Of a DNA stretch of 64,000 nt, positions 140 through 37,421 are shown in pieces. The notes below the pieces were generated by a model. That model had not been told where the DNA came from. It ran no database searches and saw only the letters and a program-made list of their open reading frames with translations. The stretch is from assembly GCF_988243305.1 (NCBI RefSeq), contig NZ_OZ547136.1; one strand, 5' to 3'. The translations under genes and the position numbers were made by a program. How positions within the stretch are numbered: position 1 is the first letter of the stretch; every line of letters starts with the position of its first letter.

Positions 140-640
<501 letters not shown>

Positions 641-663
641 CTATTTCCCTGCCTCTCCTCCCC

Positions 664-697: not shown

Positions 698-702
698 TCC
701 AT

Positions 703-3300: not shown

Positions 3301-3623
3301 TTTTTCCAGAGGCGGTCGAACTCCGCCTTCGCAAAATAAGCGGAAGCCTGGCGAAGGATATCGTTACTGCGGCGCAGTTCACGATTTTCACGTTCCAGCT
3401 CTTTCAGACGCTGACGTTCAGCGGTGGTGAGCCCTCCATCACCGCCCCCGGTATCCCGCTCATGCTGGCGAACCCAGACACGCAGAGTCTCCGGCGTACA
3501 GCCAATCTTTGGGGCAATGGAACAAATTGCCGCCCACTGTGAGTCATACTCATCCTGACTTTCCAGAACCATACGAATCGCCCGCTGACGGACTTCGGGG
3601 GAAAAACGAGTATTTTTAGTCAT
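3297..3623 (-). CDS. IS3-family transposase OrfA (HTH/leucine-zipper)
   Basis: 108-aa [22 protein letters not shown]...[36 protein letters not shown]; recalled as IS629/IS1203-type OrfA. Confidence 0.85.
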
Positions 3624-4023
3624 CCTGTTTACCTCTTTCTCAGGGAGTTTAGTCTCCAGGATTCCCGGGACGGTTCAGTTTCCATTCATGCTTTTAATCT
3701 TTCCCAAAATAACTAAAGCCAGATGTAACAGGCGAACATGGTAAAGTGTCCGCATATTTGAACCTCGCTGATAACGCCTTCACCTGACAACATATTGTCA
3801 GTGCTTCAGCATGTTAAGCTGTTCTTCTGAAAGGTCGGTAAGCTCCAGGACCATATTCCGACTTATCCTGGAAGGATGGCTGGTTCAGACTTCAGGATAT
3901 GGTTGAGGGTTACCTAGTGATGAAGTCTCTTGATCAGGAGATCTGATCAAGAGACAGCACTGGGTGGGGGTGACCATCTCATATCTATGCCTCCATTTGG
4001 CAATCATCAATTTTGACAGAAAT

Positions 4024-4056
4024 AAAGCACAGGGGCTGTTCACATAGCCCCTGTGC
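4024..4056 (-). terminator. Putative rho-independent terminator downstream of MFS gene
   Basis: 10-bp perfect stem CACAGGGGCT / AGCCCCTGTG (4026-4053) followed on the minus strand by a U-rich stretch CTTTATTTCTG. Confidence 0.4.
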
Positions 4057-4138
4057 AGAGCAATTGATAACTCTTACTTTGTTGAAAATTCATTGCAGCT
4101 AAGGTCAATGCCACAACAACAAAGCAAATAAAGATTAA

Positions 4139-5425
4139 TCAGGCTTTATTAGGTAAAGTATTTACCGAATGTGAAATCTTCACTGTCAGTGTAACAACTG
4201 CTGAACACAATAGCGTGGCTATCATAAAGATGAATGCACTGTTGTAACTTCCGTCGCTGCTTTGGATCAACCAGCCAATGACAGGGGCAGAAATAACCCC
4301 AGCCATCTGACCGCCAAAGTTAACGATACCTGATGCTCGCCCCATGATATTACTGGGAATAGTATCCATCAAAATGCCCCAGAACATTGCCATAGCGAAG
4401 AACATAAACAACGCTGAAACACATTGATAAACAACAGCCATATCCGCACTACTTACGCTGAAAGTCAAGTACAGGAACCCTGCAGCAATTACGGAAGTCA
4501 AGACATATAGTGTTTTACGTTGTGGTTTTAATTTATCTGAGCAATAGCCACCTAATAATGTCCCCCCAGCTCCAAATAGAAAGGGGATCGCAGCCATTAC
4601 GCCAGTTTTGGCCAATGAGAATTCACGAACAGTAATTAGATAACTTGGCAACCAAGTTGAAAAGCCCCAGAACGTAATATCAAACAAAAACCAAATGCAG
4701 GCCATCTGCCAAAGTACAGGCATCTTAAGTACATCTTTAAATGCAATATTACTTTTGCCTTGCCCCCCGTCCTGGTTATCTGATGCTAGCTCAACCAGAT
4801 CCTGCTGCGTTATTGCTGGATGATCTTTTGGATTATCACGGGTAAATAACCAGATACCCGCAGCAATAAATAAACCTGGTATACCCAATACGATGAAGAC
4901 CATGTGCCAGCCAAATGCACCGATAATGCTCGCCGCTACAACAACCGCCAGTGCTGGCCCTAAGGTGTTCACCGTAGACTGAATGGCTGTTGCGCGTCCT
5001 CGCTCTTTCGATGGAAAATAGGTCGAAATCATCTTCCATGAAGCTGACGGGAAACAACCTTCCCCTATACCAAAGAAGAAACGAACAATCAGCATTAACG
5101 GCAGAGCAAGTACCGCACCAGTAAGGCTGGTAAATATGGACCACCATGCAATACCAATGGCCATAATTTTCCTTGAGCCAAACTTATCGGCTAACATTCC
5201 ACCGGGAATCTGAAATGCAGCATAACCAATAAAAAAAGCACTAATAATTAAACCTTGTTGTGTTGTATCAAGATTTAAATCTTTGCCAATATAAGGTAAT
5301 GAAACACTCATGACCATTCTGTCGAGAAAAGAGAGTAACCATGCTAACCAAATTAAGGTCAAGACGGTATATCTTGCTTTCCAAAGTTTTGGTTTACCTA
5401 AAGGTAAAGATGTTTGTAGATTCAT
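4139..5425 (-). CDS. MFS transporter, anion:cation symporter (ACS) family-like
   Basis: 428-aa ORF with about 12 hydrophobic segments and MFS signature region ...GGMLADKFGSRK...; last gene of a four-gene minus-strand operon. Confidence 0.75.
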   Translation of the reverse strand: MNLQTSLPLGKPKLWKARYTVLTLIWLAWLLSFLDRMVMSVSLPYIGKDLNLDTTQQGLIISAFFIGYAAFQIPGGMLADKFGSRKIMAIGIAWWSIFTSLTGAVLALPLMLIVRFFFGIGEGCFPSASWKMISTYFPSKERGRATAIQSTVNTLGPALAVVVAASIIGAFGWHMVFIVLGIPGLFIAAGIWLFTRDNPKDHPAITQQDLVELASDNQDGGQGKSNIAFKDVLKMPVLWQMACIWFLFDITFWGFSTWLPSYLITVREFSLAKTGVMAAIPFLFGAGGTLLGGYCSDKLKPQRKTLYVLTSVIAAGFLYLTFSVSSADMAVVYQCVSALFMFFAMAMFWGILMDTIPSNIMGRASGIVNFGGQMAGVISAPVIGWLIQSSDGSYNSAFIFMIATLLCSAVVTLTVKISHSVNTLPNKA

Positions 5426-5502
5426 TGTAATGTCCTTTGAGTGTAACTATCTATCGCGACTCTTTTGGTCGCGATAGATCAATAAGTATTTAACGTAATT
5501 TA

Positions 5503-7098
5503 TTAATATTCTTTTCTGATAACTTTACCGCTACAGGCATAACTTTCCGTACCATTAATTAAGGCGATACGTCCATTGACCATTACAAGTTCAATTCCTT
5601 CTGGATACTGATTTGGCTCTACAAATGTTCCCTTATCTGCAATGGTTTTGGGATCGAACATTACAATATCAGCCGCATACCCAACTTTAAGTAATCCCCT
5701 GTTTTGCAGACCTAATACTTCCGCAGGTTTGCCGGTCATTTTACGAATTGCATCCTCCCAACTTAGGCATCCCTCTTCACGCACATATTTGCCCAGTACA
5801 CGAGGAAAGGCTCCAAACACTCGAGGATGGGGTTTTCCTGCCCCCATTAAACCATCAGTACAGACGTTCTGCTCTGCACGACAGAGGAATTTAATAACGT
5901 GTTCTTCTGTCCCATAGAAATCAACCATTCCTACAGCGTTTTCTTCTTCAAGAAGCAAATCGAAAGTGGCGTTATAGGGATCTTTACCGCGTAATTCGCC
6001 TAACTGGACAAGATTCAAACCTACGGCATCCTGATTTTTGGCAGTTTTCACACTGGTGACAAAAATTTGGTCTAGACCAGCAAAGTCAATAAAGTTATCC
6101 CATCCTGGAATACCTTGCTGAATGTCGTCGATCATTTTTGCACGCAGTTCTGGCGAAGCTAGTCGTTTCAGCAATTTATCCGTTCCTCCGGAATGGACCC
6201 ACGGAGGTAGGATTACACCAAGCATAGTGCTACCTGCAACATACGGATATTGATCGTAAGAGATACGTATTCCCTCTTTCTGCGCCTGTTCCAACATGCC
6301 AAGCATTTGGTCAATAAGCCCCCAGTTTTTCTTCCCACATACTTTCATATGTGATATATGGAGCCACACACCACTAGCTTTGGCTATATCGATTAATTCT
6401 TGGGTTGAATTGATAATATCATCAGCTTCACTGCGCTGATGCACCACAAAGAGCCCATCATATTTCGCTGTGACTTTACATAATTCAATCAACTCAGCAG
6501 TATCGCCAAAGGCGCAGGGCATATAGATAAGCCCAGAGGAAAGACCAAATGCCCCAGCTTTTAACTCCCGCTCAAGGATTTCACACATCTTTGCGACGTC
6601 TTCACGGGTAGAAGGGCGACCATCAAGTCCCATCGCTTCCATACGTACATTACCATGCGGAACCAGATACGCTAGATTTGTTGCTGGATGGTGAGATTCC
6701 AATAGGTTTAGGTATCCATCGGTATTTTTATATTTCCAGTCTATTTTATCGGTATCACCGTCAAGTCCAGCAATATTTTTACGCCAAGCTGGAATATATT
6801 TCTCAGGTAGTGGAGCCAATGCGACACCATCCTGTCCAAGTAACTCAGTAGTAATACCTTGACGTATTTTTGCCGATAGTTCAGGATTTATAATGGCCGA
6901 TAAATCAGAATGTGTGTGTGTATCAATAAAACCAGGGCAAATAATTTTTCCGCTTGCATCAATAAATTGTTCATTCTTACCAACATCAACGTGGCCGATG
7001 GAAATAATATATCCATCATCAACTACCACGTCAGTAATTATGCCCGGACTTCCTGTTCCATCAATAACATTTCCATTTTTAAAAATTGTTTTCATCAT
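5503..7098 (-). CDS. N-acyl-D-amino-acid deacylase (D-aminoacylase) family amidohydrolase
   Basis: ORF with KNGNVIDGTG...FIDTHTHSDL metal-binding amidohydrolase motifs. Start placed at the ATG (7098) preceded by GGAGA on the minus strand. Confidence 0.75.
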   Translation of the reverse strand: MMKTIFKNGNVIDGTGSPGIITDVVVDDGYIISIGHVDVGKNEQFIDASGKIICPGFIDTHTHSDLSAIINPELSAKIRQGITTELLGQDGVALAPLPEKYIPAWRKNIAGLDGDTDKIDWKYKNTDGYLNLLESHHPATNLAYLVPHGNVRMEAMGLDGRPSTREDVAKMCEILERELKAGAFGLSSGLIYMPCAFGDTAELIELCKVTAKYDGLFVVHQRSEADDIINSTQELIDIAKASGVWLHISHMKVCGKKNWGLIDQMLGMLEQAQKEGIRISYDQYPYVAGSTMLGVILPPWVHSGGTDKLLKRLASPELRAKMIDDIQQGIPGWDNFIDFAGLDQIFVTSVKTAKNQDAVGLNLVQLGELRGKDPYNATFDLLLEEENAVGMVDFYGTEEHVIKFLCRAEQNVCTDGLMGAGKPHPRVFGAFPRVLGKYVREEGCLSWEDAIRKMTGKPAEVLGLQNRGLLKVGYAADIVMFDPKTIADKGTFVEPNQYPEGIELVMVNGRIALINGTESYACSGKVIRKEY

Positions 7099-7161
7099 AA
7101 TTCTCCATGACGATGTCACATGGTGACACCGCCTGTAAGGGAAGAGGTTTTATCTTTAAAT

Positions 7162-8346
7162 TTAACGGAGATATAGTGTCTGAATAATGCTGTAATAACC
7201 ACTGGCCGAACCGGTTAATTGCTCGATCTCAATGTACTCATCAATGGTGTGCGCCAAGTTTTCCCGTGAAGGTCCAAACCCAATAGTTTTGATCCCCGCT
7301 TCACCAGCATAGTGGCTTCCGTTTGTACAAAATGAGTACTGCGTGATGGTCGGTGAAAACCCTGCCTTACGAATACCAACCAACGCAGCTTGTACAAATT
7401 CATCAGATTCGTCAAACACCCACCCAGGGAAGAAACGCTCACCTTCAATAGTTGCTCCTGTGTAGCAGGACTCTTGGCCTACTGCGTACGAGACCCGCCC
7501 TTTAAACTGCGGATCGAGGATTGCGAACTCTGCCAGTACACGTTCCAGAGGTGCAATAACGTTTTCTTTCGTTTCTCCGACAAGCAAACGGCGATCGTAA
7601 GTTGCACGGCAGTAATCCGGCACTACTGATGCTCCCGGATATGGCGATGATTTAATGTCTGTTAACTCTAAAATTCCGGGGCCAAGTATCGGATGCATTG
7701 GTGGTACAATGGTACGAATTTTGTCAATTAATTGTGCCATTTTGTAGACAGCATTTATTCCTGCCTGTGGATTGGCTGAGTGAGCTGGTTTCCCAAATGT
7801 TTCGACAACAATTTCAGCGCGTCCACGCTGACCGATTTTCAGGTTTAATTCGGAAGCTTCACCGATAATTACGTAATCAGGTTTAAAACGTTCACTGACC
7901 AAGCGTGCCGCAACACCTTCAAAACACTCTTCATGGACAATACAGGCTACGTAAATTTTGCCGGAAAAATTACGCTGGTAATCCTGACCAAAAAAACCAA
8001 CGGCGGAGATCATAGCCGCAACAGCTCCCTTCATGTCGGTTGCCCCCCGACCATAAATTTTGCCTTCGTCAATATCACCGCCATATGGATTCCGAGTCCA
8101 CATATCTTCGTTTACAGGCACAGTATCAATATGCCCATCCAAAACGAGAGTTTTCCCTGGCTGATTGCCAATAATACCACCAATAATATTGCCATACTTA
8201 TCGATATGAATATCGTCAAACTGGTAATACTGCATCATATCTTTTATGGCATTCACTACATCCCCTTCCTGACCGGAATAGCTTTTTTGTTGGATCAATG
8301 TCTGACAATTTTTAATAACTTCTTTATAACGACTTGCAGATAACAT
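7162..8346 (-). CDS. M20-family peptidase (ArgE/DapE/YgeY-like)
   Basis: 394-aa ORF with HIDTVPV and GRGATDMKG metal-ligand motifs typical of M20 deacylases. Confidence 0.75.
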   Translation of the reverse strand: MLSASRYKEVIKNCQTLIQQKSYSGQEGDVVNAIKDMMQYYQFDDIHIDKYGNIIGGIIGNQPGKTLVLDGHIDTVPVNEDMWTRNPYGGDIDEGKIYGRGATDMKGAVAAMISAVGFFGQDYQRNFSGKIYVACIVHEECFEGVAARLVSERFKPDYVIIGEASELNLKIGQRGRAEIVVETFGKPAHSANPQAGINAVYKMAQLIDKIRTIVPPMHPILGPGILELTDIKSSPYPGASVVPDYCRATYDRRLLVGETKENVIAPLERVLAEFAILDPQFKGRVSYAVGQESCYTGATIEGERFFPGWVFDESDEFVQAALVGIRKAGFSPTITQYSFCTNGSHYAGEAGIKTIGFGPSRENLAHTIDEYIEIEQLTGSASGYYSIIQTLYLR

Positions 8347-8378
8347 GGTGTTCCTCCGTTATTATTTAAATTAGAAAA

Positions 8379-9593
8379 TTACTGCTGAAGTACCGGATAC
8401 TGAGTCCCCCAGACAATATTGCGATATGATTCTGGGTCAGTGTCACCTTCAGTGCTGATTAGCAAAACACGGGAATGTGAATCCAGCCCCAACTGTTCAC
8501 GGGTTTGCCTAAATGTAGGGGAGGTCATCAGTAACGCCAGAAGCCCTGTGGTTACTGCCCCTGACTCTCCAGAAATAATCTGCGGATCTCCTGCTAACGG
8601 ATTTCCCAAAATACGCATACCCAACATTGCAACCTCGTCAGGACAGGAGGCAAAGGCTGTAGCATAGTCACGTAGCAGCTTCCAGCCGATACTGTTAGCC
8701 TCGCCACAAGCCAGTCCTGCCATGAGTGTCTGCAAATCCCCCCCTACTGCCACGGCATTTCCATCTTTCGCCAAGGCTGAGCGGTAGAGGCAATCGGCAA
8801 TTAATGCTTCTACAACGATTACTTTTGGACGATTATCCCCCCAAGCAGCAGTCACCATTCCCTGGACCATACCCGCAAACGAACCAACCCCCGCTTGGAC
8901 AAAGATATGTGTTGGTGCTACCTGATGGAGTTGAGCCATAGCCTCCAGCATCAACGTGCTATAGCCCTGCATGATCCATAGAGGAATTTTTTCATACCCT
9001 TCCCAAGCGGTGTCCTGAACAACAATCCAGCCGGATTTATCTGCCTGCTCTGCGGTCATTCGAACAGCATCGTCATAGTTCATATTGACAATTTCAGCCG
9101 TAGCACCTTCATTGCGAATTGATGACAGGCGTTGTTGCGAAGACCCCTTTGGCATATAAACTACTGCATTTTGCTTTAGCTGACGCGCCATCCACGCTAC
9201 TCCCCGCCCGTGGTTACCGTCAGTAGTAGTAGCAAAGGTAACTGTTTTCAGATAATGGCGCACATCGTCACTAGTCATGATATCAAACGACAATTCATCA
9301 ATCTCTTTCCCTAGTAATTCTGCGATATGACATGCCATGGCATAGGCGCCACCCAGCACTTTGAAGGCTTTTAGGCCAAAACGCTGAGACTCATCTTTGA
9401 GATAGATCTTTTTTATCCCTAATTTTTGTGAAAGCGCAGGTAATGTATAGAGCGGCGTTGGCTCGTAGCCTGGTATTGTCCGATGAAAATTCAATGCTTT
9501 TACCAGCTCATTGTGACTAAATGAAGCTAGTGGTGCGCTAGGTTGCTGAGTAAATTGTGTCTGGTTAATAAAAAAGGATATTTTTTCCTGCAT
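8379..9593 (-). CDS. Diaminopropionate ammonia-lyase-like PLP enzyme (DpaL/YgeX family)
   Basis: 404-aa ORF, fold-type II PLP enzyme with lysine in ...QRFGLKAFKVLGG...; first gene of the operon. Confidence 0.75.
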   Translation of the reverse strand: MQEKISFFINQTQFTQQPSAPLASFSHNELVKALNFHRTIPGYEPTPLYTLPALSQKLGIKKIYLKDESQRFGLKAFKVLGGAYAMACHIAELLGKEIDELSFDIMTSDDVRHYLKTVTFATTTDGNHGRGVAWMARQLKQNAVVYMPKGSSQQRLSSIRNEGATAEIVNMNYDDAVRMTAEQADKSGWIVVQDTAWEGYEKIPLWIMQGYSTLMLEAMAQLHQVAPTHIFVQAGVGSFAGMVQGMVTAAWGDNRPKVIVVEALIADCLYRSALAKDGNAVAVGGDLQTLMAGLACGEANSIGWKLLRDYATAFASCPDEVAMLGMRILGNPLAGDPQIISGESGAVTTGLLALLMTSPTFRQTREQLGLDSHSRVLLISTEGDTDPESYRNIVWGTQYPVLQQ

Positions 9594-9675
9594 GATAAGA
9601 CCTCATTGTACTGGTATCTCGCACCCTGTAATCAGAGAAATCCAAAGATGCCTTCTGTATGACTATTCACTAAAA

Positions 9676-9691
9676 AGCAAAATGCGTACCA
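9676..9691 (-). promoter_or_regulatory. Candidate sigma-54 (-24/-12) promoter for the catabolic operon
   Basis: Minus-strand TGGTACGCATTTTGCT: GG and GC elements separated by 10 nt, near-consensus to TGGCACG-N4-TTGC. About 80 bp upstream of the operon ATG and adjacent to a divergent sigma-54 activator gene. Confidence 0.5.
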
Positions 9692-9973
9692 GTTTTTTAT
9701 TAGAGTTAGTAAAAAGTAACATATATTTCTTTAACCTTTTCATTTCAATGAATTAGGAAGTCATTGCGTCATAATGAATCCCCCTCCCTAGTATTGGCCT
9801 TATTTCAATGCCTGATAAATTCTCATTAATGAGAATTTATGTGATCAATCAAAAGAAAATAATAAAAACACAAATAAAACATATAGATATATTGATCTTT
9901 TTCAAGTAAATTTTTCCTAATATCATATAATTTCTCATTTTTCTGAGAATTTTATACTGACTGGAGGAGAACC

Positions 9974-11719
9974 ATGATTTCAGTACTGAGAAACATTCAG
10001 GATGATATATGTAATTATGCCGATGCTATCTCTGGCATAATCGGAACTGATGTAGAAATCATTGATGAGTCATTAATGCGCATAGCTGGTACAGGTCAAT
10101 ACAGGTATATGCTCAATGAGAGTGTGGTAAAAAATGGTTACATTTATCGGCATGTATTACAGGTACGAAAAACAGTTCTGATCACAAATCCAGGAGAACA
10201 TCCTCTCTGCCAGTTATGTGAGAAAAACCATTATTGCTCGGAAATGTTAGATTTGAACACACCCATTTTTCTCAATGAGCGTGTCATCGGAGTCATTGGA
10301 ATTATTTGCTCTACCCAGACACAGCGTAAAATCTTGTTGAACCAGATTGATAAATTTATTACCTTTATTGAGCAAATTGCTGCGATGATTTCCAGTAAAG
10401 TCTTCGAATGTCTGGAACGCCTGCGGGCCCAAGAAACTCTCAGTACATTTCGTCGATTGATTGATGCGATGGATCGCGGTGTTGTAGCTATTGATGGTAA
10501 GGGCCGAATCTGGCACGCTAACAACTCAGCCGATCGCATACTTAACCGCAAGGTTCAAGGTATTACGTTAACGATTGAAACAACCGGGGACATTCTATAT
10601 GGAGATGAAGAAGCATGGTTGACGCTGGAAGGAGAAAGATACCATGTGTTGTGCAAACAAATTTCTCTTTCCTCATTAGATAATGATCGACTCACCATGA
10701 TTATCTTTCGTGATGCACATGACTATCTGAGCACAATAGTTTATCCTTACGAATCTGATGCTCAAGTGCGATTAATTGGACATTCACCACTAATGGAACA
10801 ACTCAGAAGCACCGTTAGAAAAATCGCCAGTAGTTGTGCCAGCGTACTGATCACCGGAGAAAGTGGCTCAGGTAAAGAAGTTGTGGCATTTGCTATTCAT
10901 CAGAATAGTCCACGTAAATCCGCTCCTTTTGTAACAATCAACTGCGCTGCAATCCCAGAGCAACTGCTGGAAAGCGAGCTATTTGGCTACGTGAAGGGGG
11001 CATTTAGTGGGGCGAATCCTAAAGGACGTATAGGTAAATTTGAACTGGCCAATGGGGGAAGTCTCTTTCTCGATGAGATCGGAGATATGCCGCTCCATCT
11101 GCAGGCCAAGCTGCTTAGAGTTCTTCAGGAAAAAAACATTACCCGCGTTGGCTCTAATAATATTATCAATATTGATGTGCGCATTATTGCTGCGACCAAC
11201 AAAAACATCCGTGAAATGGTTGAGAGTAATCAGTTTCGAGAAGACCTTTATTATCGCCTGAATGTGGTTCCTCTAGTAATTCCTTCTTTACGGGAACGAC
11301 GGACTGATATTGCCCTCCTTGCACAATATTTTGCTGATGAGTTCTCTGAAAGCTATCAACGTCCAGTGAAAAAACTCCCCGATGATATAATTAACCATCT
11401 TTACGCTTGGCACTGGCCTGGTAACATCCGTGAATTACGTAATGTCATTGAGTATATTTTTGTTATGCGTGGTGAAACTACTGATATCAACGTCAGCCAT
11501 CTTCCCCCTTATCTGCTCAATGTAGTGGACAACAGCAAAACTGTTATGACAATCAACACCAAGCAGCTACTGAGTCAGGGAAGACAAGCGGAAAGGAGGG
11601 CAATTGAAACTGCATTACAACGATATAGCCCAAGTGGAGAGGGGAAAAAACAAGCTGCCGCTGAATTAGGAATAAGTATTGCTACACTATACCGAAAGAT
11701 AAAACAATATGGTTTATAG
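9974..11719 (+). CDS. Sigma-54-dependent transcriptional activator (bEBP, YgeV-like) with N-terminal sensor domain
   Basis: 581-aa ORF with Walker [15 protein letters not shown] loop, ELFGY motif and C-terminal HTH (...[17 protein letters not shown]). Divergent from the operon. Confidence 0.85.
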
Positions 11720-11889
11720 GCGAATTTTCTTTATCACACAATATTTAGATAAGCAAATTGAGTAATTATTCTGTAAAGCATTCAGCGAATGCCTGTTATG
11801 TCACAAAAATTATTTACAGATCACATAAGTCATTTTCAAATGGCTTTGACTCTGGAAAAATAAGGTGTGCACTACTGTACGGGGTGAGC

Positions 11890-12895
11890 AACACTGGTGA
11901 TGGCGGGGTATTGTTTCATGAAATGCTAAATAACTGCTCCTAATGCCGCTACACTTTAGCCAGCCCATGTTTTCCACCGGGAAATGGGCTGACGGTATCC
12001 ATAAAGTGACGAACCTTTTTCAACAACTGCCACATTGAACGGCACTGGTGATTTCGGGTTACTGTCTCATGAAGCGCCTGCCATAACCGTTCGATATGAT
12101 TGACCCACGGCGAGTAAACCGGCTGATAAATTATCCTGAACTTCGAGTTTGCTTTCAGCCAGCGCAACGTTTCACGGCTTTTGTGGATGATGTAGTTATC
12201 GACAATGAGTGTAATCGTTTTTGCCCGCCGGTATGTCGCTTTCAGGTGTTTTAACAGACTGATAAATAAGGACGAACCTTTACTGTTCCCACCAACGTAG
12301 CTGACTTTTCCCGTACCGCTGTGCAGCGCACCGGCAAGATAGTACTTTTCATTCTGACCCGGCGTGACAACGCGCTTTTGCTGCCCACGTAGCTGCCAGC
12401 CTGCACCAATTTTGGGATTGAGGTGAATATCCACTTCATCTTCGTAAAACACGGGGTTTTCCGCACAGCATTTCGCCAGTGCTTCATGAATAGCGACCAT
12501 TTTTTCTTCTTTGTGTGGGTCACGGATACGCAGTGTCGGCGCAGTTCTCCGCCATACCAGTCCGGCAGCAGGCAACCAGCGGCATATACACTCGGCAGGT
12601 AATGATTTGTCCATTAACACCCGACTGCGTGAACCAGTTAATCCAGGGTCCAACATAGGAACGGACTCAGCAGAGCATTCTAGCAACATCGCTGACACGG
12701 TGGAGCCATTGCAGTATCACCATAGCAGTCAGTCTGCGGGCATAATTTTTATCGTGTGTTTTGTGGATAGCTTTCTGTATCAGGTGTCGTTCGTTACAGG
12801 GAATTGGCTCTATGATTGGCATAGTTCAGTCCGGTTGGTGATTTGTTTTAATTTGTCGATTGAACAAACGCACAATCCGGGCTGAGTTCCCTCAA
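11890..12895 (-). mobile_element. IS630-family element, apparently defective (approximate ends)
   Basis: Transposase reading frame recognisable in two frames: N-terminus MPIIEPIPCNERHLIQKAIHKTHDKNYARRLTAM... from ATG at 12820-12822, ending at an in-frame TGA; C-terminal DDE part in ORF 11949..12698. Element ends not mapped. Confidence 0.6.
11949..12822 (-). pseudogene. IS630-family (Tc1/mariner-like) transposase, disrupted by premature stop/frameshift
   Basis: C-terminal 249-aa ORF ...DPHKEEKMVAIHEALAKCCAENPVFYEDEVDIHLNPKIGAGWQLRGQQKRVVTPGQNEKYYLAGALHSGTGK...DNYIIHKSRET... The N-terminal segment is in a different frame and stops at TGA. Confidence 0.6.
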
Positions 12896-15010
12896 AGTGA
12901 TCTACTATTCCGTGCAGCTATTTAGATCAAGGCTAAGGCAGGAATTTTATGTAATTAATGCTAGAGGTAAACGTTGTGGGTAAATGGTTTGCATGGTTAA
13001 TATTTAACCATAAGGAATAAGAGGTATTGCAGAATTAATTCCGTATAGTTATTCTTCTTGTAAGAAGATTTTTGGGTGCTAGTGATAAATTACAGAGCCT
13101 ATAGAAATGTAAAGTAACAAATCACAGAATAAGGATACAATAGCATAATTTATTGTCACACAAAGCCCCAAGACATTCTGTAATAAAAGGAATTTCCATA
13201 AGAAGAACCATTGACAATAATATGAGCACCACCATTGTAGAGATATTTATTTATGACTGAAAAGGAACTCCAAAATTTGGCTATTTCTATATATGAAAGG
13301 CAACGAGAGAAGTTATCACGTGAGACAGAGTGTAATAAATCTACCTCAATAAGATTTGCCCTAGAAGATTTCCTAAAGAATGCTCCGAAACGTATGCGAT
13401 CTGCGCGTGCTCGCCCCCCAGGGTAATAAATGTCGCAAACTCTGATAATATTTTTATGAAAACAAGCATATTTACAAACGTAAACTAATGATTCTAATTT
13501 GACAGAATATAAACTATAAGTATTAATAAATACCATACGGAGCAGAAAAAAATATCAAAATGAGTTAATTTGATTAGAAAGATTTATCCCATTTATAAAG
13601 ATAATTGTAGAAAGATTCATTGACTCTAAGAGCAAATAAGGAGAGGGCATACAGGATATAACTAGTACTCATAATAAAAATCCCTCTACCGATATAAGTA
13701 AAATTTATTTCCCAGACGAGTTTTTAATAATACATATCAGAAACAGTGCTAAACGATGGGCCGTAATCCTCATGAATAGTAACTCATGGTTATTTTACAC
13801 TGGATTATCGGTGGGGTAATTCTGATAATAGAAACACCTGAAAAACTAAAATCATTAATTTTAAAATACAACCATATACTCATCAAACTCTCGATACACC
13901 ATTCTTCTTTTAAAGTAAAGAAAAACTCTATCTGTGCTTATGTTCCACAACATAAATAGAATAAAAAAATTAAGGATTTATATATTAAGAGTGAATTTAC
14001 ATTTTAGGCTAACTTTAGTACATATTAATTATTGTTTCTTATTAATTTTAAACTTCAAAAGCTATATCAAGGGTTGCCACTTCTATCTGCGACTAACAGC
14101 ATATCTATCAGCAACAATTGATTAATTCCAGCACCTCATGTCGGCGCGATCTGGTGGAAAAGCCATTCCACCAAAACAACCCCAAGCGCTGGCACGTTGG
14201 GGAGATCTGCACTGTGAACCAGCTGGCAATGAGCCGCTTTATTATCGAGTTCGGTGACCGCCTAGACGGTCACTTCTGAGAAAAGGCATTTACACAGAAT
14301 CCTAAACCGGCTCGCAGGTTTCCCCCACTCCCCATCCGCACTCAAGTTCAGACGGCGAATAACATAGCTAATCAGCTCATTACGGAATGACTACCATCCA
14401 GATAGTGTGCCGCAGTTTAAGGTTCGGTCAACCGCTTTTTAACCATTCAGCATTGCCTACAATACAAATAAGGAGCCTTATATTATGCCTAATCTCTGTA
14501 TGCTGCATAGTGCCGGGTGCCTCCCGGTGAGTCCAGCCTGGTGTCTCTGAACCCGCATAGAAAGGATTAGGGTAATATAAAAACAAACACCTGTTACTGA
14601 TATGCTCCGCCGCTTAGGGGAGTTCACCATACATTTTTATTTTTAACAAAAAAGCTCAAGGCGACAATAATAAATACTATAAAATGTGAGCAGCATAACA
14701 TTTTAACTTAGTAACTAATATTCACTAAACTTACCAATTCACATACGCCCCACGGCATGGCAAAGCTTCGTTACGTTAGTTTATACCACATAGGTATTAT
14801 TACCAAACTAAATAATCACTTTACGCTCTGTATTTTGCCTGTTTTCACTGCGGTTTTTCTCAATACCCCGTCCAGAATAACGTTAACACATTATTAACTT
14901 AAATCCGGAGAACATGATGATGACTGGATTCAAACACACTTAACATGAATATCCTCTATCCATTAAAATAACTGTCATTGAGCCGGTTGAAAAAACGAGA
15001 TGAACTATAA

Positions 15011-15184
15011 ACAGATCTAGCAGTGGCATGGCTGGCGAATGGCGTTATCAATCCACTGCCTTTACTGAGTGCTGAATATCCCTTCACTGACCTGGAAGAG
15101 GTGCTACGTTTCGCCGGTGATAAAACCCAGGCATCAAAAGTCCAGCTTGTTTTCTTAGAGATAAATAAAGGAATAATACAATGA
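15011..15184 (+). pseudogene. idnD: 3'-terminal remnant of L-idonate 5-dehydrogenase gene
   Basis: Short in-frame stretch ...AWLANGVINPLPLLSAEYPFTDLEEVLRFAGDKTQASKVQLVF... resembles the IdnD C-terminus. Its stop overlaps the idnO ATG (ATGA). Everything upstream is replaced by AT-rich DNA. Confidence 0.45.
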
Positions 15185-15800
15185 ACAAGCAATTTTCACT
15201 GGCAGAAAAAATATCTTGATTACCGGATCAGCACAGGGCATTGGCTTTTTACTGGCAACCGGTCTGGGTAAATATGGCGCACAAATAATTATTAATAATA
15301 TTACTGCCGAACGCGCATAACTTGCTGTAGAAAAACTCCACCAGGTGGGTATTCAGGCCGTTGCCGCACCTTTTAATGTTACTCATAAACATGAAATTGA
15401 TGCCGCCGTTGAACATATCGAAAAGGACATCGGCCCCATTGATGTGCTGGTGAATAACGCCGGTATCCAGCGCCGTCATCCTTTTACTGAGTTCCCTGAA
15501 CAAGAGTGGAATGATGTGATCGCAGTAAACCAGACCGCCGTGTTCCTGGTGTCGCAAGCGGTAACCCGTCACATGGTTGAACGCAAGGCAGGTAAAGTTA
15601 TTAATATTTGCTCGATGCAAAGCGAACTGGGACGTGGCACCATCACCCCTTATGCCGCATCGAAAGGGGCGGTAAAAATGCTCACCCGCGGCATGTGCGT
15701 CGAGCTGGCGTGCCACAATATTCAGGTCAACGGTATTGCGCCGGGCTATTTCAAAACAGAAATGACTAAAGCACTGGTTGAGGACGAAGCCTTCACCGCC
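15181..15800 (+). pseudogene. idnO: 5-keto-D-gluconate 5-reductase (SDR) gene, inactivated
   Basis: ATG at 15181 reads MNKQFSLAEK then hits a stop after 12 codons. SDR frame resumes in another frame (ITGSAQGIGFLL...) and contains an in-frame TAA at 15318-15320. The SDR catalytic region is intact in ORF 15345..15863 but the 3' end diverges. Confidence 0.6.
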
Positions 15801-15805
15801 TGGTT

Positions 15806-16003
15806 GTGCAAGAACAAATTTCCATTGCGGGTTTTTATGGGCTGGAGATTGGCAGGCAAATGATCCCAAGCCTCGCCAGCGTAATTACTCCCCGTTTTGA
15901 TATTGGTCGGATGGCCGCCCAAATGTTGCTGAGCAAAATTAAGAATAACGATCACAACACTGTTGACCTCGGGTATCAGATTTATCACTGTAACACGCTT
16001 TAG
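15806..16003 (+). pseudogene. idnR: 3' remnant of LacI-family regulator gene, fused downstream of idnO remnant
   Basis: ORF ...[55 protein letters not shown] resembles a LacI/GntR-type C-terminus. The transporter gene expected between idnO and idnR is missing. Confidence 0.4.
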
Positions 16004-16080
16004 GTTATTTTCTCTTCATTACACGTATTCTCTTTGCCGGACGTTGCCTATACTCCAAGCAGGAAACTGGAGGAAATCTC

Positions 16081-16745
16081 ATGAGCGCCTCCCTGTTAAT
16101 TGCCCGCATGCCAATACGGTGGGGTGGGATATCTTTGGCGAGAAAGGCCATCCGGTGCGGGCAACGGTTTCAGACCTAGGGCCACTGTTGCTGGCGTGGC
16201 TGTTGAATCTCAACGATGTGCAGTCTGGCGTGCTGGATATCATTTTCCGCATTGCTGATGATCAGGGATTGTTGCTGCTCGACTTTAAAGATCTGCGGGC
16301 AATTACCCAGTACATCGGCGATAACGCCAAATCCTTCCAGAATCAGTACGGTAATATCAGTAGCGCATCGGTTGGTGCCATCCCGCGCGGATTACTGTCG
16401 CTGGAGCAACAAGGCGCAGAGCATTTCTTTGGCGAGCCGATGCTGGATATCAAAGACTGGATGCGCACCGATACCAACGGTAAAGGCGTTATTAATATCC
16501 TCAGCGCCGAGAAGCTTTATCAGATGCCGAAACTGTATGCAGCCAGTCTGCTGTGGATGCTCTCGGAGCTGTATGAACAATTGCCGGAAGCGGGCGATCT
16601 GGAGAAACCAAAACTGGTGTTTTTCTTCGACGAAGCGCATCTGCTGTTTAACGATGCAGCACTGGTACTGCTGGATAAGATTGAGCAGGTGATAAGGCTT
16701 ATTCGCTCAAAAGGCGTTGTCGTCAGAACGGCTTCCCCTGTGTGA
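16081..16745 (+). pseudogene. yjgR: DUF853/HerA-like ATPase gene with internal deletion and 3' truncation
   Basis: ATG at 16081 encodes MSASLLIAR then shifts frame. ORF 15963..16745 carries the central region (...[24 protein letters not shown]...[17 protein letters not shown]...) but ends prematurely with unrelated residues. Confidence 0.55.
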
Positions 16746-17258
16746 CAAAGCCATAGCTCAGGTGCGTGCGGTCCGCACGGCGCGGAGCCTGAGGGCTTCA
16801 CGGCGGAGGATATGCGGACCATCGGGCGCTACCTGCACTGCGAGGCGAATTGGAACATCGACTCGGACTTGAGCCTGTGAGGGGGGCCGTCCTCGGGAGA
16901 AGTTTTTCTGCGAAATAACTATGCGCCGACGGACGAACACTCGTTCGTGTGGCCTATGGCCCAGGGCAAAGGCTGGGGGGCCCCTATTAAGTTGTCAAGA
17001 ATGTTTATTACACCAGCGGGGTATAAAAAGTACCGTCACGCATCATGGCGAATAGAACGTCGCAGCGCCTTGTTCACAGTGTTTTCACTCGTGGTTATCT
17101 GTACCCGTGAATATCAGACCATTGTCACCAGCCCATGCCTGTAATTCTGTCAGAATGGCTACAGCCTGTTTGTTGGGTGGTACAAGATGCAGTGCCCTCT
17201 GGTTCCCTCTGATGAGAGTCCTGGCGGGGTGAACAAATAAAAAAGAAAACATAAATAA

Positions 17259-17296
17259 AACCATCCGGCTTTTGGGGCCGGATGGTTATTCATTAT
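17259..17296 (-). terminator. Hairpin terminator downstream of integrase gene
   Basis: CCATCCGGC / GCCGGATGG 9-bp stem (17264-17291) flanked by A/T runs on both sides. Confidence 0.5.
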
Positions 17297-17321
17297 TTCT
17301 GTGTCACTGAATTTTCATTCA

Positions 17322-18503
17322 TCAGGTCTGCTCAGAAAGTGAATCAATGTAGTCAGCGTACCATTGCATCATTTCACGGCGACCATCGAGATACTGTGCG
17401 TGGTTATAGGTACCGCGCATGATGTTTTTATCAACATGGGCAAGCTGGAGTTCAATCCAGGCAGAGCTGAAATCATGGTCATGGAGAATGGTACTGAAAG
17501 TATGCCGAAAACCATGAGCTGTAGTGAATGTATGCCAGCCAACTTGTTGAAGAAACTCATTGATGCAACCACGGCTACGAGGTTGATTACCCCTGTATAC
17601 ACCAGGAATAACCAGATCTGAGTTACGGGGATTTGTGATTATTTTTATATCTTTCAATAACATTTGAGCCTGATGAGAAAGAGGAACAACATGCGGCCTC
17701 CGCATTTTCATTCTCTCTTTTGGGATTACCCAGAGGGCATTGGTAAAATCAATTTCATCCCAAGTAGCCAGGCGTAATTCTCCCGTTCGAACAGCAGTCA
17801 GAACCAGTATCCGCGTTACCAGAGACATAAAATTTCCTGAAACTTTCATTTGGTACATGAAAGCTCCTAACTGTTCTTCAGATAGCATCCGTCTCTGCTG
17901 TTTTTCAGGATGCAGAACAACACTGCTGAGAGTCGATGCTGGGTTAATAGTGGCGCGCCCCGTCGCAATGGCATAATCAAATATTTGAGAACAGAGCTGA
18001 CGAGTCTTACGTAACGCTTCAAGTTTGCCATTCCTTTCAATAACCCTCAGTGCATTCAATATTTCCAAGGGGCGAATATCAGCCACAGGACGCTTCCCTA
18101 GCGTGGGATTAATATGATTCTCGAATCTTGCACGCTGGTCCGCTAAATAACCCGCAGTCCAACGACAAGCCATATGTGTGAACAACTCTTCTGCAAGAGT
18201 ACAAAATGTGCATGCAATACTTTCTCTTAGTGCATGTTTACTCGCCTGTTTTTCATATGAAGGATCTTTTCCTTCAGCCAGGAGTTTACGTGCGTCATCC
18301 CGTTTCTGACGCGCCAGAGCCAGTGATATGCCTGGATAGACACCAATCACCAATTTCTTTTCTTTACCCGCAAATCGATACTTCAGATTCCAGTAACGAG
18401 CGCCAGATTTCTTGATAAGAAGGTAAAGTCCTTGACCATCAGAAAGTTTGTAATCCTTGTCAGCGGGTTTGGCCGACTCAATTTGTCGAACAGTAAGTGG
18501 CAT
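17322..18503 (-). CDS. Tyrosine recombinase, P4-type phage/island integrase
   Basis: 393-aa ORF MPLTVRQIESAKPADKDYKLSDGQGLYLLIKKSGARYWNLKYRF... with C-terminal catalytic region ...HGFRHTFSTIL...LAHVDKNIMRGTYNHAQY (R..HxxR..Y). No tRNA gene adjacent. Confidence 0.85.
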   Translation of the reverse strand: MPLTVRQIESAKPADKDYKLSDGQGLYLLIKKSGARYWNLKYRFAGKEKKLVIGVYPGISLALARQKRDDARKLLAEGKDPSYEKQASKHALRESIACTFCTLAEELFTHMACRWTAGYLADQRARFENHINPTLGKRPVADIRPLEILNALRVIERNGKLEALRKTRQLCSQIFDYAIATGRATINPASTLSSVVLHPEKQQRRMLSEEQLGAFMYQMKVSGNFMSLVTRILVLTAVRTGELRLATWDEIDFTNALWVIPKERMKMRRPHVVPLSHQAQMLLKDIKIITNPRNSDLVIPGVYRGNQPRSRGCINEFLQQVGWHTFTTAHGFRHTFSTILHDHDFSSAWIELQLAHVDKNIMRGTYNHAQYLDGRREMMQWYADYIDSLSEQT

Positions 18504-18678
18504 GATGTTAACTCCGAAAAGTAGCCCCCAGAGTAGCCCCCAAAATCATCTTGATGCTCATGGAAGATGGTTTACATCCAGAGTAAAAGAATTTCTGATA
18601 ATACCTTATTTTAACGTGTGTTAAAGGGGATGAAGAGAGTTCTGTTGAAATCAGTCGAAATAAATAGGGCTTAATAAA

Positions 18679-19493
18679 TCCTCCCCGCCGGGGAGTGCTG
18701 GCTGGAACGCCTGCGACTGGCAAAAACGTTGGGCTTCGATTTTGTCGAGATGTCGGTAGATGAAACTGACGAGCGCCTGTCGCGCCTCGACTGGAGCCGC
18801 GAGCAGCGTCTGGCGCTGGTGAATGCGATTGTTGAAACCGGCGTGCGTGTGCCGTCCATGTGCCTTTCTGCCCATCGTCGTTTTCCGTTGGGCAGCGAAG
18901 ATGACGCGGTGCGGGCGCAGGGGCTGGAGATTATGCATAAAGCCATCCAGTTCGCCCAGGACGTTGGCATTCGCGTGATCCAGCTGGCGGGCTATGACGT
19001 TTACTATCAGGAAGTCAATAACGAAACGCGTCGTCGTTTCCGTGACGGCCTGAAAGAGAGCGTTGAGATGGCAAGCCGCGCGCAGGTGACGCTGGCGATG
19101 GAGATCATGGATTATCCGTTGATGAACTCCATCAGCAAGGCGCTGGGTTACGCGCACTATCTCAACAACCCGTGGTTCCAGCTCTACCCGGATATCGGCA
19201 ACCTGTCGGCGTGGGACAACGATGTGCAGATGGAGTTGCAGGCCGGAATCGGGCATATCGTCGCGGTACATGTGAAAGACACCAAACCTGGCGTCTTCAA
19301 AAACGTGCCGTTTGGCGAAGGTGTAGTGGATTTCGAACGTTGTTTCGAAACGCTCAAACAGAGTGGCTATTGCGGGCCGTACCTGATTGAGATGTGGAGC
19401 GAAACGGCGGAAGACCCGGCGGCAGAAGTGGCGAAAGCGCGTGATTGGGTGAAAGCGCGCATGGCGAAAGCGGGCATGGTGGAGGCGGCATAA
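18679..19493 (+). pseudogene. ulaE: L-ribulose-5-phosphate 3-epimerase gene, 5'-truncated
   Basis: Reading frame begins mid-protein (...[32 protein letters not shown]...). The first ~13 codons and upstream ula genes are absent; homology starts abruptly about 180 bp from the integrase start. No ATG. Confidence 0.65.
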
Positions 19494-20179
19494 TGCAAAA
19501 GCTAAAACAGCAGGTATTTGAAGCCAACATGGAGCTGCCGCGCTACGGGCTGGTGACCTTTACCTGGGGCAACGTCAGCGCTATCGACCGCGAACGCGGG
19601 CTGGTGGTGATCAAGCCCAGCGGCGTTGCCTACGAAACCATGAAAGCGGCCGATATGGTGGTGGTTGATATGAGCGGCAAGGTGGTGGAAGGGGAGTATC
19701 GCCCATCTTCCGACACTGCGACGCATCTCGAACTCTACCGTCGTTACCCGTCGCTTGGCGGCATTGTCCATACCCACTCCACTCATGCCACCGCATGGGC
19801 GCAGGCGGGGCTGGCAATTCCGGCGCTAGGCACCACGCACGCCGACTACTTCTTTGGCGATATCCCGTGCACGCGCGGATTAAGCGAAGAAGAGGTGCAG
19901 GGCGAGTATGAACTGAACACCGGCGAAGTGATTATCGAAACGCTGGGTGACGCCGAGCCGCTGCATACGCCGGGGATTGTGGTGTATCAGCACGGGCCGT
20001 TCGCCTGGGGGAAAGATGCTCACGATGCGGTGCATAACGCGGTAGTGATGGAAGAAGTGGCGAAAATGGCGTGGATTGCGCGCAGTATTAACCCACAACT
20101 GAATCACATCGACAGCTTCCTCATGAATAAACACTTCATGCGTAAGCACGGTCCTAACGCTTATTACGGGCAGAAGTAA
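19493..20179 (+). CDS. ulaF: L-ribulose-5-phosphate 4-epimerase
   Basis: 228-aa protein [34 protein letters not shown]...; ATG overlaps the ulaE stop (TAATG). Confidence 0.85.
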
Positions 20180-20307
20180 AACACGCGCTGCGGAAATTTC
20201 CTTCTTCGGGAGATAACTGGTCTAATTCCGCAGCCGTTTTTCAAAAAAAGCCCCCTGCGAAGGGGGCAAAGCAAACTATGGCAATGTTTCGTTGGTTATA
20301 CCTGGTG

Positions 20308-20583
20308 CTAGCGATAAATATCCGCGCTGGCGTGCATATTGCCGTTACTCCCCGGTTCCCGCATCAGAATTACGTGGTAGTACGTTGCGCCCTGCGCATC
20401 TGTTTCTTCATTTAATGCCTGACGTGCTTCACTTTCAGTGGCGAAATTATGATTGATATAAATCACGCCTAAGCTTTGCATATCGTCCATATTTCTGGCC
20501 TGGTGGTTATTGATTTCAATGGCTGCCCATGTATTTGCACTTAGCAAAAGCACAGCCAGAAGGGCTAAAACTCGACTGAACAT
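20308..20583 (-). CDS. yjfY: Small secreted protein YjfY (DUF1471)
   Basis: 91-aa product MFSRVLALLAVLLLSANTWAA... with signal peptide; start chosen at internal ATG 20581-20583. Confidence 0.75.
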   Translation of the reverse strand: MFSRVLALLAVLLLSANTWAAIEINNHQARNMDDMQSLGVIYINHNFATESEARQALNEETDAQGATYYHVILMREPGSNGNMHASADIYR

Positions 20584-20891
20584 AGATACCTCCTCGACGG
20601 CTGACTTTGTGTGCTCTCCTCTGTGATGATCTTCTGATTTAATTTTAATCAATGATAAAGAAGTTGATGGTGACCATTTCTGATGCAGTTGTTCAAAAAA
20701 ACACCATGATGAAGTGTGATGAACTCCAAATCAGCGGTTTAGAGGTTAATTGCGAAAGGGGAGATTTATTTCGGCTCTGCCCTTGAGTTTAGCGGGGCAT
20801 ACAAGTACTATAACGCGTCATTTTTCAGCCGACCTTTAACACGTTCCTTGCCTCCCCGGGATTCGGCTGACCCAGACAGGAGGCTGAATAA

Positions 20892-21305
<414 letters not shown>

Positions 21306-22402: not shown

Positions 22403-22450
22403 ATAGCGAAAGCGTTACAACTGGTAGTATAACGCTCTGATATCTATTAA

Positions 22451-23267
22451 TTAGCTTGTCGCTAACTGTACTTGCGGTTCTTCATCTTTAACTTTGATAA
22501 GCGTCCACAGCGCAATGGCGCCAATAATGTCAAAGAAAGCCAGGGCAATAAAGAACGGCGCGAAGCCGATAATGTGAACGAATGCCCCGATAAACAGGTT
22601 GAAAATCAACTGACCGCTCCACGCACAGGCTCCTGCCATACCCACTGCGGTAGCTACTTCGTCTTTTTTGAACAGATCGCCACCCAGAGTTGCTGCTACA
22701 GTAGAAAGACATTGATGCGAGAACGCGCCAATACTAATCAGTAATACGGCAATGTAGGGATTTTCGACAATACTCACCAGGCCAATCGTCATCATAATGA
22801 CGGCTGCAATAGTGAAGGTAATTCTTCGTGAGTTAATTAAACTCACGCCGCGATCGTGGAAGAACTTCGCGACAAAACCACTGGCTAAACAGCCGAGATC
22901 GCCCAGCAGGAAAGGCAGCCAGACGAACATGGCAATTTCTTTCAGGCTAAAATGCAGCGTTTCGACGAAGAAAATCGGCACCCAGAAGTTAATGGTTCCC
23001 CATGCCGGGTCTGCGAGAAAACGCGCGATGCCAATCCCCCAGAAATTACGTTGGCTGAGGATATGCTTGATTGACGTTTTTTCTTTCTTATCTGTTTTAA
23101 GATGCTGTTCTTGTCCTGATTCAATATAGTGGCGCTCTTCATCAGAAAGGCGTTTGGCATCTTTCGGATCTTTATAACAAAAGAACCAAAATAAAGCCGC
23201 GAGCAAAGCAAGGCTACCTGAAACAATAAACGCAAATTGCCAGCTATGAAACATAATGCACCAGGCA
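22451..23267 (-). pseudogene. Polytopic membrane transporter-like gene (MFS C-terminal half), 5'-truncated by IS1
   Basis: Hydrophobic multi-TM ORF. Its apparent start codon lies inside the IS1 terminal repeat (23268-23281), so the N-terminal part of the gene is missing. Confidence 0.5.
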
Positions 23268-23282
23268 GGTAATGACTCCAAC

Positions 23283-23786
23283 TTATTGATAGTGTTTTAT
23301 GTTCAGATAATGCCCGATGACTTTGTCATGCAGCTCCACCGATTTTGAGAACGACAGCGACTTCCGTCCCAGCCGTGCCAGGTGCTGCCTCAGATTCAGG
23401 TTATGCCGCTCAATTCGCTGCGTATATCGCTTGCTGATTACGTGCAGCTTTCCCTTCAGGCGGGATTCATACAGCGGCCAGCCATCCGTCATCCATATCA
23501 CCACGTCAAAGGGTGACAGCAGGCTCATAAGACGCCCCAGCGTCGCCATAGTGCGTTCACCGAATACGTGCGCAACAACCGTCTTCCGGAGACTGTCATA
23601 CGCGTAAAACAGCCAGCGCTGGCGCGATTTAGCCCCGACATAGCCCCACTGTTCGTCCATTTCCGCGCAGACGATGACGTCACTGCCCGGCTGTATGCGC
23701 GAGGTTACCGACTGCGGCCTGAGTTTTTTAAGTGACGTAAAATCGTGTTGAGGCCAACGCCCATAATGCGTGCAGTTGCCCGGCAT
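23283..23786 (-). CDS. insB: IS1 transposase InsB frame
   Basis: 167-aa ORF ...[44 protein letters not shown]... Confidence 0.85.
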
Positions 23787-23980
23787 CCAACGCCATTCAT
23801 GGCCATATCAATGATTTTCTGGTGCGTACCGGGTTGAGAAGCGGTGTAAGTGAACTGCAGTTGCCATGTTTTACGGCAGTGAGAGCAGAGATAGCGCTGA
23901 TGTCCGGCAGTGCTTTTGCCGTTACGCACCACCCCGTCAGTAGCTGAACAGGAGGGACAGCTGATAGAAACAGAAGCCAC
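23705..23980 (-). CDS. insA: IS1 InsA (DNA-binding repressor)
   Basis: 91-aa [43 protein letters not shown]... Confidence 0.85.
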
Positions 23981-24099
23981 TGGAGCACCTCAAAAACACC
24001 ATCATACACTAAATCAGTAAGTTGGCAGCATCACCCTGGAAGCCAGACGTAAGGTCATCAAAGAGACAATCCTTAGCTGGCTTTTGGTTGACCCTTCAT

Positions 24100-36194: not shown

Positions 36195-37420
<1,226 letters not shown>

Positions 37421-37421
37421 C

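Follow-up and report, generated by a model that had tools for sequence, protein, structure and literature searches.

A 64,000-nucleotide stretch of contig NZ_OZ547136.1 (NCBI RefSeq assembly GCF_988243305.1), referred to here as the window, carries between positions 14130 and 18700 fragments of the idn and yjgR genes, an intact tyrosine integrase gene, and a ulaE gene that lacks its 5' end. A sequence-only reading of this region had taken the segments to be non-contiguous in Escherichia coli K-12, which a BLAST map against that genome bears out, and had held an integrase-bearing island responsible for their meeting, which also stands. What lies here is an island junction of the ordinary kind, although its palindromic site is unusual, and it can be explained without any deletion or inversion on the scale of the chromosome. 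The region very probably represents the integrase-proximal end of a large island with a P4-like integrase that is inserted site-specifically in a palindrome within ulaE, the idn/yjgR scraps being part of its cargo.

The integrase and its junction with ulaE

The integrase gene (17322–18503, minus strand) encodes 393 amino acids, the same length as its RefSeq homologues. The protein is of the P4 type, as had been proposed from the letters: PF13356, PF22022 and PF00589, i.e., an arm-binding, a SAM-like middle and a catalytic domain, are on record for an identical protein. It matches PHROG 1 (integrase) at 1e-64, and its score of 254 bits against NCBIfam PRK09692 lies under that model's cut-off of 434 bits. 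The candidate catalytic residues R239, H330, R333, H356 and Y366, picked by motif position in the translation rather than by profile alignment, are all present. The domain architecture, the catalytic residues and the intact open reading frame (ORF) are therefore those of the P4-like subfamily; its customary tRNA target is not found here. Identity to K-12 IntB, the integrase at leuX, is 33%. The gene is followed on its 3' side by a hairpin with a T-run, typical in form of a terminator (17244–17300, minus strand; −16.8 kcal/mol, z = −5.7).

The attachment (att) core occupies positions 18681–18695 and is a 15-bp palindrome, CTCCCCG-C-CGGGGAG (CTCCCCGCCGGGGAG), with a 7-1-7 symmetry; it coincides with ulaE codons 15–19 and is the sole copy of the palindrome in the window. 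Homology to K-12 ulaE begins precisely at 18681, which is nucleotide 43 of the gene, so that codons 1–14 are missing. The open frame of the truncated gene, ulaE' (18678–19493, plus strand), starts at an ATC within the island end and runs for 271 codons; RefSeq annotates the same ORF. The earlier claim that the 5' side of the integrase abuts a truncated ulaE is thus correct as to the truncation, although 14 codons are gone rather than about 13, and 177 bp of island DNA (18504–18680) separate the integrase start codon from ulaE'. This integrase-proximal att arm contains tandem TAGCCCCCA repeats at 18522–18530 and 18534–18542, which are candidate arm-type integrase (Int) sites. Tandem TAGCCCCCA motifs with a 12-bp spacing and the same orientation were observed on both att arms (in the window and in the far arms of two other loci, L013 and L015), and a TTTCAACAGA motif is likewise common to both arms; the two motifs are candidate binding sites for the arm domains of Int or for accessory proteins. 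Beyond the junction, the first backbone gene is an intact ulaF (19493–20179, plus strand), and the window to the right of ulaE' is collinear with K-12 up to mgtA, the adjacent backbone being 98–99.98% identical to E. coli. K-12 collinearity begins only at 18681, and positions 1–18680 constitute the island portion within the window.

The boundaries of the island become apparent when the junctions are compared with the empty site, which is found in K-12 and in most of 5,426 RefSeq complete E. coli genomes and reads, in the ulaE sense, GAAAAAGCG-CTCCCCGCCGGGGAG-TGCTGGCTGG. In complete genomes of the island family, ulaD-ulaE(1-42) is located at the far end of an island of 44–68 kb, and the junction on that side is, in the same sense, GCG-CTCCCCGCCGGGGA-TGAACTTAATC. 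The junction on the ulaE side is GGGCTTAATAAATC-CTCCCCGCCGGGGAG-TGCTGG, and the window has exactly this sequence. Comparison of these junctions with the empty site indicates that 14 bp of the core are directly repeated at the two island ends. All of the junctions read (20 of 20) fall within the palindrome. The complete genomes thus display direct repeats at the island ends, an empty site in other strains, and a conserved module combined with variable cargo. The insertion splits ulaE and leaves ulaE(43-end)-ulaF beside the integrase end. By this account, the island would have entered by site-specific recombination into CTCCCCGCCGGGGAG at ulaE codons 15–19.

The conserved integration module (17229–18695) extends from the core to 93 bp beyond the integrase stop codon and shows 96–99% identity among ula islands, while the cargo past it varies and consists of a two-component system with uhpC and afuABC, of a kps capsule cluster with Tle1, or of the set in the window. 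Over the longer interval 17229–21000, the window is 96–98% identical to many complete E. coli genomes, in which the genes are annotated as integrase, ulaE, ulaF, yjfY and rpsF. Outside this group the integrase diverges sharply. Among the representatives of other species (one genome per species), identity does not exceed 55%, with the closest relatives at 43–55%, and the exact core-plus-arm att pattern has no match in one genome per species (GTDB representatives); the lineage is consequently not traceable outside E. coli and its relatives. At 18 of the 20 loci of the closest relatives, a tRNA gene (for Phe, Arg, Asn or Thr) is situated about 175 bp upstream of the integrase. As had been noted from the sequence, the integrase of the window has no adjacent tRNA: ARAGORN detects none in the 64-kb window, and Rfam finds no tRNA or transfer-messenger RNA fragment within 12000–21000 (E ≤ 0.1). 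A degraded tRNA att site beside the integrase was considered as a candidate and is ruled out by both of these negative results. Since the 177 bp between core and integrase resemble the tRNA spacing of the relatives, the lineage looks like a P4-like one whose target has shifted from a tRNA gene to a palindromic site within a coding gene, and which in other respects behaves as its relatives do.

The region is rich in repeats and insertion sequence (IS) elements, which might suggest that the junction is a chimera of unrelated contigs misassembled at repeats. Such an artefact is extremely improbable, as numerous assemblies, produced independently in separate projects, show exactly this arrangement, and the ulaE junction also occurs in 53 complete genomes. 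The site itself is already known, given that papGII pathogenicity islands of uropathogenic E. coli have been described as integrating in the ula operon (ulaE-ulaD; PMC7686366). A literature search combining ulaE, ulaD or sgaU with integrase returned only this paper on papGII islands (PMC7686366).

Remnants of idn and yjgR as island cargo

The remnants were mapped by BLAST of the window against K-12 MG1655 as the reference, followed by codon-aware realignment, and the description given in the sequence-only reading, namely a 3' stub of idnD, an inactivated idnO, a tail of idnR and an internally deleted yjgR, holds in every part. All of the pieces are on the plus strand. The idnD stub (15020–15157) retains nucleotides 895–1032, i.e., the final 138 bp of the gene, and is 97.8% identical to K-12. 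It is followed by a 3'-truncated idnO pseudogene (15181–15811; nucleotides 1–632 of 765; 98% identical to K-12), in which a 1-bp deletion after codon 8 leads to a stop at codon 13, and whose mismatches to K-12 are evenly spread over the three codon positions (4/3/5). The idnR tail (15806–16003) corresponds to nucleotides 796–999, or 204 bp of the gene end, with a 6-bp deletion; the rest of idnR and the whole of idnT are missing from the block. The yjgR gene is represented by its 5' end (16081–16112; nucleotides 1–32) and by an internal piece (16104–16724; nucleotides 268–891), so that nucleotides 33–267 and 892–1503 (the final 612 bp) are absent from the window.

The pieces differ in their history. 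The idnD', idnO' and idnR' fragments are all about 98% identical to K-12 with changes spread evenly across codon positions, which, together with the frameshift, indicates decay after inactivation. The internal piece of yjgR is only 92.9% identical to K-12; 31 of its 44 mismatches over 621 sites fall at third codon positions, and 35 are synonymous as against nine non-synonymous. The identity of the idnR–yjgR block does not exceed 94% in any of the 5,426 complete genomes. A divergence of 7% from K-12 that is mostly synonymous, in a block with no closer match in E. coli, indicates that this was not the host's own gene; the pattern is the signature of a foreign allele that was once functional and would have diverged in another lineage.

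The remnants had been described as lying directly beside the integrase, which is not the case, since about 600 bp of other scraps intervene between yjgR' and the integrase gene. The first of these is a fragment of a type VI secretion system (T6SS) Tle1-like phospholipase gene (16713–16977, plus strand), which is joined to the yjgR piece and is 92% identical to an intact gene in the ula island of strain DETEC-P1056. The second is a remnant of another tyrosine integrase, which survives as a 59-amino-acid ORF (17085–17264, minus strand; DNA match at 17104–17330) and is 87% identical to tandem integrase genes of other E. coli. Short microhomologies mark the internal joints: 5–6 bp between idnO and idnR, about 9 bp between the yjgR 5' end and its internal piece, and about 12 bp, imperfectly matched, between yjgR and the Tle1-like fragment. 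Microhomologies of 5–12 bp at three joints are typical of illegitimate deletion. The scraps would accordingly have been put together elsewhere, by illegitimate recombination at such microhomologies, and part of their DNA may come from a donor unlike E. coli.

To the left of the idnD stub, no idnK, ahr or leuX is present; AT-rich DNA without an E. coli match is found instead. About 2 kb of this DNA (12900–15020), at 28–44% GC, has no match among the 5,426 E. coli genomes, with the sole exception of a 95-bp IS256/IS1414 scrap at 14224–14322. Within it, positions 14464–14662 on the minus strand give a full-length match to the small RNA family STnc100 of Rfam (RF02076; 103 bits), which lies on a repeat of about 59 bp (14498–14556). 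All other carriers of the island have an extra 1,036 bp there, held between two imperfect copies of the repeat, from which it follows that the window has apparently lost this segment by repeat-mediated deletion.

The remnants recur in other genomes. An exact look-up of the integrase protein showed that the remnant block, together with a 100% identical integrase, is present in at least seven other assemblies (loci L005–L012), whose DNA is 98.7–99.8% identical to the window; for the island portion of the window, matches in other assemblies are 99.7–99.9% identical. In L005–L011, yjgR' (HerA_C, 208 amino acids) and idnO' (adh_short, 172 amino acids) lie at the same distances from the integrase, and an IS630 element, a sigma-54 activator and a PALP enzyme are also found at unchanged distances; L012 has the remnant block, and its contig stops soon after. 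The integrase adjoins ulaE' in L005–L009 and L012, and ulaD in L010 and L011. The carriers represent at least three backbones beside rplI, distinguished by yjfZ, by a cluster of major facilitator superfamily (MFS) and coenzyme A (CoA) transferase genes, and by IS605-family elements. The remnant block as such is found in none of the 5,426 complete genomes, where the best coverage of 14100–17320 is 29%, and the neighbouring cargo of the window is likewise absent from them. The idnD'/idnO'/idnR'/yjgR' block travels with the island as cargo, and so do the fragments of the Tle1-like gene and of the second integrase; all of these scraps are probably non-functional fossils.

The sequence-only reading had interpreted the region as a scar, left when a deletion or inversion driven by the island or by IS elements carried the native idn–yjgR segment of this chromosome from near leuX to ula. 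Relative to K-12, the idn/yjgR and ula segments indeed point in opposite directions, as they would at an inversion breakpoint, and elements of the IS630, IS1, IS110 and IS3 families are available in the window as possible agents. The 98% identity of idnD and idnO to K-12 would also suit a native origin; the yjgR allele, however, is foreign, its 92.9% identity contrasting with 98–99.98% in the backbone. It also speaks against such a scar that this block, accompanied by an identical integrase, is found on three or more types of backbone and faces either way with respect to ula, and that ulaE is broken exactly at the att core of 60-odd other islands. Moreover, the block is flanked on the left by AT-rich DNA without an E. 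coli match, where idnK, ahr and leuX would be expected, and on the right by the Tle1-like scrap, there is no reciprocal junction in the window, and the junction is seen in none of the RefSeq complete E. coli genomes. The scar interpretation is not supported, and we regard it as very improbable. Two simpler variants were also tried. A simple deletion between idn and ula is ruled out by the opposite K-12 directions of the two segments, and imprecise excision from leuX, in its simple form, is ruled out since leuX would fall on the wrong side of the remnants.

Besides the remnants and the integrase, the island portion of the window contains a group II intron, IS3 and IS630 elements, a sigma-54-regulated amino-acid catabolic operon and AT-rich DNA. 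The operon (4139–11719) is low in GC and encodes an MFS transporter, an amidohydrolase, a YgeY-like M20 hydrolase and a diaminopropionate ammonia-lyase, with a divergently oriented sigma-54 activator; none of the 5,426 RefSeq complete genomes of E. coli has it. A further assembly (L019) contains the operon near a different integrase, itself beside an amino-acid decarboxylase gene, and hence the operon behaves as a portable module. The group II intron reverse transcriptase/maturase (507 amino acids) adjoins an IS3-family transposase fragment at 703–3300, and at the DNA level this stretch most closely matches E. coli plasmids, among them those of the pAA type.

Two orientations at one palindromic core

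Complete genomes reveal that islands of this family occupy the ulaE site both ways round. In strain 2452, an island of about 47 kb is arranged as ulaF-ulaE', integrase, cargo, DUF4942, ulaD-ulaCBA; the cargo after the integrase comprises a two-component system, uhpC, an afuABC-like transporter, lactate genes and type I restriction-modification genes, and the far-end module consists of antirestriction, RadC, CbtA/CbeA and DUF4942 proteins. Strain DETEC-P1056 has an inverted island of 68 kb on a collinear backbone, with the order ulaF-ulaE', DUF4942, Ag43, kps, integrase, ulaD, and both of its junctions are exactly in the palindrome. The island of the window is itself found in the inverted state, as the identical integrase and remnant block of L010 and L011 adjoin ulaD-ulaE(1-42) and not ulaE'. 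Orientations were counted with junction-spanning queries of 201 bp against the 5,426 complete E. coli genomes. The integrase side is joined to ulaE' in 53 and the far side to ulaD in 57, while the integrase side is joined to ulaD in nine strains, within which all seven cases of the far side joined to ulaE' are found.

The sequence of the integrase does not decide the orientation, since identical proteins occur in both: WP_021513337.1 is beside ulaE' in strain 2452 and beside ulaD in CE0026a, and WP_001131670.1 is beside ulaE' in CP55_Sichuan and beside ulaD in DLI.5a. It is the core, palindromic but for its central base pair, that explains why the same integrase family is found both ways round. 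The reconstructed island site (attP) reads, in the integrase sense, ...AAGTTCA-TCCCCG(S)CGGGGA-GGATTTATT..., with tandem TGGGGGCTA pairs about 80–95 bp into the far arm and about 140–165 bp into the integrase arm; these pairs could plausibly serve the PF13356 domain as arm-type sites. Read in the ulaE sense, the centre is a C at each of the 20 junctions. Given this chromosomal C at every junction, the centre on the far side, in the integrase sense, is G when the integrase lies beside ulaE' and C when the island is inverted.

In the mechanism that we propose, Int, bound at the tandem TGGGGGCTA arm sites, would exchange strands within the palindrome, and polarity would be set by the central base pair alone, which would lie inside the overlap region that is checked for homology. 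An attP with G at its centre (integrase sense) would place the integrase beside ulaE', and one with C would place it beside ulaD. The constant central C would fit strict homology with two variants of the attP centre, and the simplest reading of the junctions is that two attP variants, one base apart, specify the two orientations. We consider the chances evenly balanced that this is a natural P4-like integrase with an att site palindromic save for its centre, at which one attP base (G or C) decides the direction of entry of a 45–70-kb island, or at which the island flips in place.

Flipping in place, in which Int, once the island has inserted in the normal way, would join attL and attR in the antiparallel manner that a palindromic core allows and turn the whole island around, deserves consideration as the sole source of the two orientations. 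Its products are indistinguishable in sequence from those of reverse integration, and the exact core junctions at both ends in both orientations, as well as the identical integrase and far-end proteins, are what it would yield. An antiparallel synapse, however, entails a central C/G mismatch, yet the chromosomal C is retained at every junction; the way in which arm sites are arranged on attL and attR normally promotes excision, and no closely related pair of genomes differing only in orientation was identified. We therefore treat in-place inversion as a tentative, somewhat unlikely source of the two orientations.

Certain facts weigh against the account of the island and its site given here. 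The hairpin of the core is no more stable than those of shuffled sequences (z = −0.85), and the central C at all 20 junctions is not what a mismatch-tolerant flip model predicts. The far end of the island lies outside the window, before its first position; in this genome it probably has the same ulaD junction. The window also ends about 20 kb short of the expected native idn–yjgR locus. No excised or circular form was observed, and the activity of the integrase and the position of the crossover are put forward from sequence comparison as probable; the presence of the same island on different backbones lends indirect support to its mobility.

Some members of the family depart from the common pattern. 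In DLI.5a, an inverted case, the far-side junction (L113, 1600–1615) has the core TCTCCG instead of TCCCCG, which might hinder excision. In AR_0085 and PK8276 (L114 and L115), a divergent integrase of 397 amino acids, 88–89% identical to the others, lies beside ulaD, and the arm has another sequence (GATCTATTGATATC...) at the same ulaE palindrome.

Neighbouring backbone, related systems and significance

Three differences were observed in the backbone. An IS1 copy (23268–24035) adjoins a 5'-truncated MFS transporter gene (22451–23281), and the IS1 region (22403–24035) stands in for about 7.4 kb that strain 2452 has between rplI and ytfB, comprising an enoyl-CoA hydratase/CoA-transferase/FAD oxidoreductase cluster; an IS1-mediated deletion seems to have taken place here. 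In the paeA–msrA intergenic region (36200–37476), the window has 1.28 kb more than K-12, an insertion that encodes a 326-amino-acid IS110-family transposase. Finally, between cysQ and ytfJ (33512–33517) the window lacks ytfI together with its flanks, which take up about 1.2 kb in K-12.

The ula islands share much with the P4-like (CP4-type) islands of tRNA genes, such as that with IntB at leuX in K-12 and those at pheV and pheU. Both have a three-domain integrase at one end, about 175 bp from the core, a far end with GTPase, antirestriction, RadC, CbtA/CbeA and DUF4942 proteins, and variable cargo. They differ in that the target of the ula islands is a palindrome in a protein-coding gene, the gene is truncated rather than restored, and both orientations occur. 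Symmetric lox and FRT spacers have also been engineered for tyrosine recombinases. Such symmetric overlap sites resemble the ulaE core in that a self-complementary crossover region removes polarity; they are laboratory constructs, whereas the ulaE core is natural, palindromic save for one central base pair, and used in the two orientations at a ratio of about 55:8. For IntDOT, an attB with a symmetric overlap gave recombinants in both orientations in vitro (PMC2817482). Our literature search on a natural palindromic attB used both ways round returned only in-vitro work.

The closest published counterparts are the papGII islands in the ula operon (Biggel et al. 2020, PMC7686366), which occupy the same ulaD–ulaE site, are flanked by an integrase and are absent from related isolates. 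In the passages of the paper covered by our search (PMC7686366), the locus alone is named, and an att core, a palindrome or two orientations are not mentioned. Unlike the papGII islands as described there, the island of the window has the sigma-54-regulated diaminopropionate ammonia-lyase operon and the idn/yjgR fossils. With the otherwise unrelated CFT073-type islands it shares a sialate-esterase/NanM/KdgM cluster, which is located just beyond the left end of the window.

For the carrier, the insertion cuts ulaE'F off from the ulaA promoter. UlaE', which lacks its first 14 residues, has presumably lost its function, and fermentation of L-ascorbate is expected to be impaired unless the sgb paralogues compensate. 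For annotation, the locus illustrates that fossil genes borne by an island can mimic breaks in synteny, and that a 5'-truncated ulaE beside an integrase is the mark of an occupied ula att site, as found in approximately 1% of complete E. coli genomes. Only two features here rise above routine interest, namely the palindromic att core and the natural occurrence of both orientations. They make the ulaE site a natural test of the role of the overlap region in the directionality of tyrosine recombinases and, if the proposed mechanism is true, a one-nucleotide polarity switch for a genomic island would be a natural counterpart of the engineered symmetric lox, FRT and att sites.

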